From Escherichia phage PMBT16: DNA of 64,000 bases. The DNA lies in the sequence record PP554575; one strand, written 5' to 3'. The first letter of the stretch is position 1; each line of letters begins with the position of its first letter. The notes under the pieces were generated by a model, which was given only the letters and a program-made list of their open reading frames with translations, made no database searches and was not told where the DNA came from. Positions 43,174 to 43,693 of the stretch are shown one piece after another. Both the position numbers and the translations under genes were made by a program.

Positions 43174-43524
43174 TTACTGCAACAGTTTTTCAATAGCCGC
43201 TTCCATGCTGCTTGCAACAGCCTGAACTCGGATATTCATCTCTTCTTGGTGGATCAGCTCCTTAAGCTCTTTAATGGTAAATTCTTTAGAGAAACCTTCC
43301 ACCATAATCTTGTGCAAGGCTTCTTGCGTGTCTACTTGCAAGAACTTTTCCAGTTTGTTGGCAGAGGCTTCTAAATCAGCCCGAATACGAGGGTCATCTG
43401 TGCGATTCAGCATTAGGCGTAAGCCATCAAGATTAGTAGAAATAGCATCTGCATGTTGAGTAACTAACCGTGGCAAAATGAGATCTACAAACTTATTAGC
43501 CAAATCGATACGTTCTTGTGTCAC
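43174..43524 (-). CDS. hypothetical protein (116 aa)
   Basis: ORF track; GTG start. Confidence 0.55.
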   Translation of the reverse strand: MTQERIDLANKFVDLILPRLVTQHADAISTNLDGLRLMLNRTDDPRIRADLEASANKLEKFLQVDTQEALHKIMVEGFSKEFTIKELKELIHQEEMNIRVQAVASSMEAAIEKLLQ

Positions 43525-43634
43525 TGTTGCACCCCCTCTTCATCTTCATGATGTTTCTTTTCACGCTTGTGTTTTTTCTTAAGCTCAAGCGCAATCTCTT
43601 TCTTGTACGCCTTCTTCAAGGCTTTTTTAGCCAT
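43521..43634 (-). CDS. small lysine-rich basic protein (37 aa)
   Basis: ATG 6 nt after GAGGAGGTG RBS; MAKKALKKAYKKEIALELKKKHKREKKHHEDEEGVQQ. Confidence 0.5.
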   Translation of the reverse strand: MAKKALKKAYKKEIALELKKKHKREKKHHEDEEGVQQ

Positions 43635-43663
43635 TTGGCACCTCCTCTGCTTTCATTACGACA

Positions 43664-43693
43664 ATTATAACCGACTTAACAAAGCTTTGTCAA
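43664..43693 (-). promoter_or_regulatory. sigma70-like promoter on minus strand (TTGACA-N17/18-TATAAT)
   Basis: Consensus hexamers on reverse complement between nrdG stop and small basic gene. Confidence 0.5.

Follow-up and report, generated by a model that had tools for sequence, protein, structure and literature searches.

We wondered what a 37-codon open reading frame (ORF), placed between an anaerobic ribonucleotide reductase (RNR) gene and a phoH-like gene, might contribute to an rV5-like phage. The stretch of DNA that we analyzed, called the window here, comprises 64 kb of the genome of Escherichia phage PMBT16 (PP554575). A first-pass annotation, made from the letters alone, had pointed to a lysine-rich 37-aa protein encoded on the minus strand with a strong ribosome-binding site (RBS) and its own promoter. 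Escherichia phages naam and nomine, which belong to Vequintavirus (rV5-like myophages), share 99.6% identity with this region over 3.5 kb, and their records annotate the small ORF as a hypothetical protein. The record of the type phage rV5 (DQ832317) labels the same elements 'Sigma70-type promoter; P118' and 'ORF 118', and next in it come ORF 119 and the PhoH-like ORF 120. The rV5 paper describes gene 118 as encoding a protein of 37 aa, 4482 Da and pI 9.8 without homolog or function, and its Table S4 gives P118 as TTGACAAAGCTTTGTTAAGTTGGTTATAAT, predicted by visual inspection only (Kropinski et al., 2013; PMC3606486). Being annotated both in GenBank and in that paper, the feature is already known as an uncharacterised gene, and its protein has a PHROG family of its own. 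The rV5 protein (ABI79183) occupies the same position, after nrdG and before ORF119 and phoH, and carries one substitution, H28Y; the rV5 promoter has the same TTGACA-N18-TATAAT arrangement and one different spacer base. We found no difference of substance between the two loci and regard the window phage as a sister phage of rV5. Mass spectrometry of rV5 virions did not place gp118 among the named virion proteins (PMC3606486); a peptide so rich in lysine would largely escape tryptic mass spectrometry. Literature searches on the peptide sequence, the PHROG identifier and the accession numbers returned nothing, and a search for a Vequintavirus transcriptome study found none. The close relatives of this region also include 19 records (MG0656xx) named 'Campylobacter phage' with Campylobacter jejuni as host, which are 92-98% identical to it; this host label is probably wrong, or else the lysates were contaminated.

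The locus, read in the direction of transcription, contains the following features:

43697..44170, minus strand: nrdG (anaerobic RNR activase), the upstream neighbour, identified as an ORF and by annotation in relatives.

43664..43693, minus strand: sigma-70-type promoter with TTGACA at 43693-43688, an 18-nt spacer and TATAAT at 43669-43664, corresponding to rV5 P118.

43639..43647, minus strand: Shine-Dalgarno sequence GAGGAGGTG within an unstructured leader of about 23 nt.

43521..43634, minus strand: gene of the 37-aa basic protein (rV5 ORF118, PHROG 7670), with ATG at 43634-43632 and TGA at 43523-43521.

43521..43524, minus strand: GTGA overlap in the sequence, joining the stop codon of the small ORF and the GTG start of the next gene.

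43174..43524, minus strand: partner gene, encoding a 116-aa acidic all-helical protein (rV5 ORF119, PHROG 7650).

42347..43135, minus strand: gene of a PhoH-like ATPase (PF02562, E 3.6e-47), third gene of the inferred P118 unit.

A 37-codon frame is unremarkable by length alone, as the region of the small ORF is overlapped by dozens of frames with 25 aa or more. Among Vequintavirus relatives, 12 of its 16 variable sites fall on codon position 3, and the first 22 codons carry synonymous changes only. When the window was compared with the Mydovirus ortholog, 17 of 32 N-terminal residues were identical, 12 of these 17 being specified by different codons. This dominance of synonymous substitutions, together with the conservation of the protein, shows at the level of comparative sequence analysis that the small ORF is coding and under protein-level selection. 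The lysine-rich translation proposed in the first-pass annotation proved exact, and the selection pattern marks it as the product of a genuine gene. The protein, MAKKALKKAYKKEIALELKKKHKREKKHHEDEEGVQQ, has a mass of 4.5 kDa, a net charge of about +6 and a pI of 9.8, and contains 12 Lys and 1 Arg in 37 residues. Its AlphaFold2 (AF2) model is a single helix spanning residues 2-35, with a pLDDT of about 90 for residues 1-20.

Two sequence elements inside the ORF were noted separately. A run of A at 43568-43577 (minus strand, AAGAAAAAAC) lies in its Lys codons. Variants at this run in the databases comprise an expansion by two Lys (P0004) and a frameshifted 45-aa product (P0005); the frameshift was found on three contigs, one of them a 137.8-kb phage contig, and reads into a short dead-end frame. 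The run is either a slippage-prone tract or the site of a recurrent sequencing error. A plus-strand terminator-like hairpin at 43609-43622 was dismissed, as it is not conserved and synonymous changes in one relative (L005) break it.

The minus-strand promoter named in the first-pass annotation was also borne out at the level of sequence, with a spacer of 18 nt and not 17. It combines consensus hexamers and a spacing within 16-18 nt with a position upstream of a gene, as expected of a sigma-70 promoter, and is the sole 12/12 consensus match between 38 and 50 kb. The -35 hexamer begins 3 nt after the nrdG stop codon (43697-43699). Perfect TTGACA-N16-18-TATAAT sites occur four times in the 64-kb window, versus 0.03 expected from shuffles. 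Three further perfect promoters, with spacers of 16 or 17 nt, lie on the plus strand at 8248-8276, 13940-13967 and 17889-17916; they fit a heavy use of host sigma-70 consensus promoters as proposed in the rV5 paper. Related phages carry eight distinct promoter/UTR haplotypes in which both hexamers and the 18-nt spacing are unchanged and the core of the Shine-Dalgarno sequence is kept, while eight spacer positions vary and UTR length ranges from 23 to 31 nt. The RBS lived up to its description as strong: the 29 nt from TATAAT to the ATG include GAGGAGGTG, whose GGAGG core precedes the ATG by 6 nt when read on the minus strand. The leader folds at -3.8 kcal/mol (z = +0.61) and forms no hairpin, so the RBS is not occluded. 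An Rfam scan of 43000-44200 found no RNA family. Since a consensus sigma-70 promoter fits recognition by unmodified host RNA polymerase (RNAP), the small gene is probably transcribed early or constitutively.

The idea that the gene has its own promoter held for the window and did not hold as a constant feature. The promoter is present upstream of the small ORF in Vequintavirus, Mydovirus, 4MG, FENT2, L018, L026, L032 and L048, and absent in PVP-SE1 and TH18, in both of which the ORF abuts nrdG, as well as in the L015 clade and in Henunavirus. It is therefore a feature of some lineages and does not define the gene.

We then asked how far the protein is conserved. It matched the PHROG 7670 HMM over its full length at E 2e-20 and 73.6 bits, its residues 1-37 aligning with positions 1-37 of the 46-position profile. 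Homologs were recovered by partner-anchored searches, with degenerate DNA patterns and by searching 5.8 billion proteins with a profile whose first sequence was a 46-aa ortholog. The profile search yielded 41 clusters of 32-52 aa, all free-standing and none fused to another domain; where checked, all were located on contigs of Vequintavirinae-type phages. When 185,579 genomes of bacteria and archaea were scanned with a degenerate pattern, none matched. Fifteen metagenome pattern matches encode members of the family, the long contigs (83-148 kb) being Vequintavirinae-sized phages and the rest short fragments. The family is found in Vequintavirus, a second E. coli clade (L015), Mydovirus (Klebsiella, Proteus, Raoultella), Seunavirus (PVP-SE1, 4MG, FENT2), Henunavirus (Hena1, pEp_SNUABM_01), TH18-like phages and several metagenomic lineages.

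In an alignment of 40 sequences, L6, K8, A9, K12, E13 and A15 are invariant, and conservation reaches 90% or more at K3, Y10, L14, L18 and R19. The consensus reads MSKKTLRKAYQKELALELRGKKRK, and its first 19 residues, MSKKxLRKAYxKELAxxLR, are nearly invariant. This N-terminal helix is kept across phages of Escherichia, Salmonella, Klebsiella, Proteus, Cronobacter, Enterobacter and Erwinia, and by alignment residues 1-19 are among the best-conserved stretches of this genome neighbourhood across Vequintavirinae. By our geometric reading of the alignment, conserved residues are placed on all faces of the helix. After the helix motif come residues rich in Lys/Arg, then an acidic patch and finally a variable tail, which in members of 45-52 aa reads 'EELMQLVADAAAR' or 'FGF..NQW.YNG'. 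The window protein belongs to the shortest and most divergent subtype, with K7, K11, I14 and K19 and without the tail.

No family in Pfam or NCBIfam matched at E <= 1, whether the 37-aa protein or the 46-aa ortholog served as query. Comparison with PDB sequences gave nothing significant; the best match (E 0.35) was the UIM helix of Rpn10/S5a of the proteasome, which shares a core 'ELALALR' followed by a charged helix. We attribute this match to chance, as the motif is eukaryotic and the match covers part of the conserved region only. The functional guess drawn from the composition, a resemblance to histone-like, ribosome-binding or nucleic-acid-chaperone peptides, was thus not supported by these searches. 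Histone-like and nucleoid-associated domains (HU/IHF, H-NS) were absent from the Pfam and NCBIfam results, and a single helix of 37 aa is too small for either fold.

We next considered the gene directly downstream. Its product matches the PHROG 7650 HMM at E 2.5e-57, and its AF2 model is an elongated four-helix protein. The homologs are acidic proteins of 114-152 aa with, across orthologs, a net charge of -1.4 to -10.4 as opposed to +5.5 to +6.6 for the small protein. They have diverged to 25-30% identity between lineages, whereas the N-terminus of the small protein is far more conserved. Searched exhaustively with an HMM of the partner, 1.84 billion representatives yielded only 16 clusters, none of which provided a link to any known family. 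The PHROG 7670/7650 pair is likewise assigned to adjacent genes in FENT2, both being families without an assigned function. The order in the window, nrdG, small ORF, 116-aa ORF and phoH, recurs in rV5 and about 12 other lineages, and all lineages share the arrangement of RNR genes (glutaredoxin or nrdG), small ORF, partner and phoH. In each of the approximately 13 lineages whose fetched DNA contains both genes (window, L015, Mydovirus, L018, PVP-SE1, 4MG, FENT2, TH18, Hena1, pEp_SNUABM_01, L026, L047 and L048), the PHROG 7650 gene comes immediately after the small ORF, and among the lineages examined the small protein was never seen without the partner. These data show that the small gene is obligately adjacent to the partner gene. 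Part of this adjacency could come from the general collinearity of Vequintavirinae genomes.

At the junction in the window, the overlapping stop and start codons, on which the first-pass annotation was silent, form an arrangement typical of translational coupling, and a Shine-Dalgarno-like sequence for the partner, GAGGGGGTG, lies within the last codons of the small ORF. Across lineages the junctions range from an 8-nt overlap to an 8-nt gap, examples being a 1-nt ATG/TAA overlap and gaps of 4-8 nt. A programmed frameshift fusing the two frames was rejected, because the offsets differ by lineage (-8, -4, -1, +4, +8). The GTGA overlap and the position of the partner's Shine-Dalgarno sequence, together with the poor conservation of the C-terminal part, would also be explained if the small gene were a mere upstream ORF whose translation delivers ribosomes to the weak GTG of the partner, the peptide itself being functionless. 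A leader peptide of this kind would be free to drift, but residues 1-19 are under strong purifying selection and have been kept through abundant synonymous change, which pure coupling would not need. In Seunavirus and TH18, moreover, the partner has its own RBS after a gap of 4-8 nt. We consider a functionless peptide highly improbable.

How far does the transcript extend? Only 38 nt separate the partner gene from phoH. From 43693 to 42347 the minus strand contains no terminator-like site, and the promoter-like sequence that comes next (42302-42274, corresponding to rV5 P121) follows phoH. From the lack of a terminator before the end of phoH and the position of this next promoter we infer a three-gene unit. 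Upstream of the locus, between nrdD and the nrdG cluster, we noted a 285-aa ORF (44724-45581, minus strand) whose counterpart in phage A51.2 is annotated with a T5 ORF172 domain. This stretch is covered in full by 7 of 121 related phage records, the others aligning in two pieces, and by sequence the ORF looks like a mobile insertion of the endonuclease type.

Outside Vequintavirus, all lineages, among them Mydovirus, Seunavirus, Henunavirus, TH18, L018 and L048, have a gene for a GH19 lysozyme between the partner gene and phoH. The coordinates of this gene in relatives are:

L004, 2865-3419: GH19 lysozyme gene.

L021, 11586-12296: GH19 lysozyme gene.

L027, 1909-2463: GH19 lysozyme gene.

L029, 1861-2565: GH19 lysozyme gene.

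L030, 1946-2500: GH19 lysozyme gene.

Such an order, combined with the cationic nature of the small protein, raised the idea of a membrane-active lysis peptide resembling disruptin (phiKT gp28) or of a lysis regulator. Several observations speak against this. In Vequintavirus the GH19 gene is absent from this position and a different lysozyme is encoded about 18 kb upstream, so that no endolysin gene is adjacent in the lineage of the window. Hydrophobic or transmembrane segments are lacking in both the small protein and the partner. For residues 2-19 the hydrophobic moment amounts to 0.25-0.39, a value reached or exceeded by a fraction of 0.15-0.51 of shuffled sequences; the idea of an amphipathic, antimicrobial-type helix was dropped for this reason. 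The Mydovirus KP12 carries its holin, endolysin and spanins in separate cassettes (PMC9902359), so even there the GH19 gene near phoH may not be the main endolysin; its spanins also speak against a disruptin, which would be expected in a phage that lacks them. Finally, late timing is at odds with the sigma-70 promoter and with a neighbourhood of nucleotide-metabolism genes. A role in lysis is accordingly as improbable to us as that of a functionless peptide.

The first-pass annotation had further proposed that the protein, together with a gene resembling the hibernation promoting factor (HPF), hints at targeting of the translation apparatus. The gene in question is located as follows:

34016-34333, minus strand: HPF/RaiA-like gene (PF02482, E 1.8e-12) with a Lys/Gly-rich C-terminal tail, KCGGKKGKGKGKVKIDFRE.

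A ribosome-binding peptide acting with this HPF-like protein could be envisaged, as the composition of the small protein is like that of small basic ribosomal proteins and the partner itself gave a sub-threshold match to PF02482 (E 0.035; 15.3 bits, cutoff 23.7). The HPF fold is alpha/beta, and the all-helical model of the partner contradicts this match. A distance of 9.2 kb, with about 27 annotated genes, separates the small ORF from the HPF-like gene downstream of it. Searched for by tblastn in the collection, the HPF-like gene was detected in 117 records of the Vequintavirus type, which are listed under Escherichia, Shigella and 'Campylobacter' phages, and in one Salmonella chromosome, but in none of the Klebsiella, Salmonella, Cronobacter, Enterobacter, Proteus and Erwinia phages with the small ORF; at least five other lineages have both the small protein and its partner. 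The two genes are thus linked neither by position nor by phyletic distribution. In addition, the small protein shows no sequence or profile similarity to ribosome hibernation families (HPF/RaiA PF02482, RMF, Sra, bS21), and no ribosomal protein was among its PDB matches at E <= 10. With the HPF-like gene so distant and, among the phages of the collection, detected in Vequintavirus only, a ribosome link of the small protein is not supported and appears very improbable.

A stand-alone peptide that binds nucleic acids deserves more weight, although we still regard it as unlikely. Here, the basic helix and the K/R-rich linker would bind an RNA hairpin or phage or host DNA, acting like the RNA-binding peptides of lambdoid N proteins or like small nucleoid-associated proteins. 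The net charge, the 13 Lys/Arg among 37 residues and the predicted single helix agree with such an activity, and a possible binding site exists in relatives: in phages of the Mydovirus and Seunavirus type a stem-loop is present between the -10 hexamer and the Shine-Dalgarno sequence of the small ORF, at these positions:

L004, 2277-2302: leader stem-loop.

L018, 2819-2843: leader stem-loop.

L030, 1311-1335: leader stem-loop.

L031, about 1263-1285: leader stem-loop.

L032: leader stem-loop.

L048, about 683-707: leader stem-loop.

L026, about 6878-6908: leader stem-loop.

The stem sequence differs in about seven lineages while pairing is always kept, i.e. the stems covary (CCTGCCG/CGGCAGG, TCCGGCC/GGCCGGA, GCCCATC/GGTGGGC, GCCCAC/GTGGGC, GGCCC/GGGCC, CCTGCCGGG/CCCGGCGGG and CCCAGCCG/CGGGCTGGG). 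Judged from these sequences, the element may be a stabiliser of the 5' end of the mRNA or a regulatory site bound by a protein. The leader in the window has no such hairpin.

A precedent for short basic helices that bind RNA is provided by the arginine-rich motif (ARM) peptides of the lambdoid N proteins (lambda, P22, phi21), which like the small protein have a short basic N-terminal helix. The N-terminus of the small protein presumably bears a loose resemblance to the ARM peptide of phi21 N. As in the N systems, some relatives carry an RNA hairpin just downstream of the promoter on the same transcript. The small protein differs in that it is Lys-rich and not Arg-rich, has 37 aa, lacks NusA- and RNAP-binding regions and has no Pfam match. 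The combination of an Arg-rich motif and a boxB-like hairpin that characterises N is not found in the window (12 Lys and 1 Arg, no hairpin). ARM-like action is conceivable in those relatives that have the leader hairpin. As a general explanation, nucleic-acid binding is further weakened by the lack of a nucleic-acid-binding family in Pfam or NCBIfam and of a significant PDB match, by the conserved Leu, Tyr and Ala residues of the motif, which set it apart from Arg-rich ARMs, and by the obligate pairing with an acidic partner, which it leaves unexplained.

The strong conservation of the N-terminal helix across enterobacterial phages, against a diverging partner, might instead reflect a target in the host. 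The small protein would then inhibit or modulate a host protein conserved across Enterobacterales independently of its neighbour, its helix mimicking or blocking a binding helix. T7 Gp2, T7 Gp0.4, T4 Stp and lambda CIII are small phage proteins that target the host, and the size and single-helix architecture of the window protein are typical of small host inhibitors. With T7 Gp2, T7 Gp0.4 and T4 Stp it also shares a probably early transcription by host RNAP, suggested by the host-type promoter, and a restriction to one phage lineage. It has no relationship to them in sequence or structure, however, and unlike them it is coupled to a second protein. The PHROG, Pfam, NCBIfam and PDB searches gave no homology to any characterised inhibitor, and joint action is favored by the tight coupling to the partner seen in all lineages. 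We rate independent host inhibition as doubtful, on a par with stand-alone binding of nucleic acids.

The reading that we favor, with a probability of roughly 0.4, is that the small protein is a single-helix subunit that acts with the partner in a two-protein module. The opposite charges, the strict linkage, the fact that the two proteins are never fused and the AF2 models of one helix and of four helices are in its favor. The P118 transcript would encode the small protein first, then the 116-aa acidic helical protein and the PhoH-like ATPase. Efficient translation of the small ORF would agree with its strong, open RBS, and a ribosome terminating at its TGA could re-initiate at the overlapping GTG of the partner, by which both proteins would be made together. 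The near-invariant helix of 19 residues, MxKKxLxKAYxKExAxxLx, would be the functional element and would dock onto the co-translated partner, making the peptide the smaller member of a Vequintavirinae-specific module. Electrostatic contacts may be added by the flanking Lys/Arg stretch and the acidic tail, perhaps with nucleic acid or with a host target that is conserved. Extra contacts of this kind are suggested by the better conservation of the small protein relative to the partner and by the conserved residues on all faces of its helix, a constraint that partner docking alone may not explain. A conserved third target, be it a host protein or nucleic acid, fits the N-terminal conservation at least as well as docking to the partner does.

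A more far-reaching version of the two-protein module, which we hold to be possible and clearly less likely than the module as such, would make gp118 and gp119 a Vequintavirinae-specific factor that is co-transcribed with PhoH and whose basic helix engages a protein or RNA conserved in Enterobacterales; in those lineages that have the covarying leader hairpin, it may also bind its own mRNA. If true, this factor would belong to a class of takeover or regulatory modules not recognised so far, and it could offer a first functional handle on phage PhoH.

What is new here, as read from comparison of the sequences, is that the small ORF is coding, that its N-terminal helix is invariant throughout the subfamily and that it is strictly paired with PHROG 7650. 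Phages of the Vequintavirinae type are widely used in biocontrol and therapy directed at E. coli O157, Salmonella and Klebsiella. As the peptide can be synthesised, the gene pair next to phoH is a reasonable and cheap target for characterising the unknown early genes of these phages.
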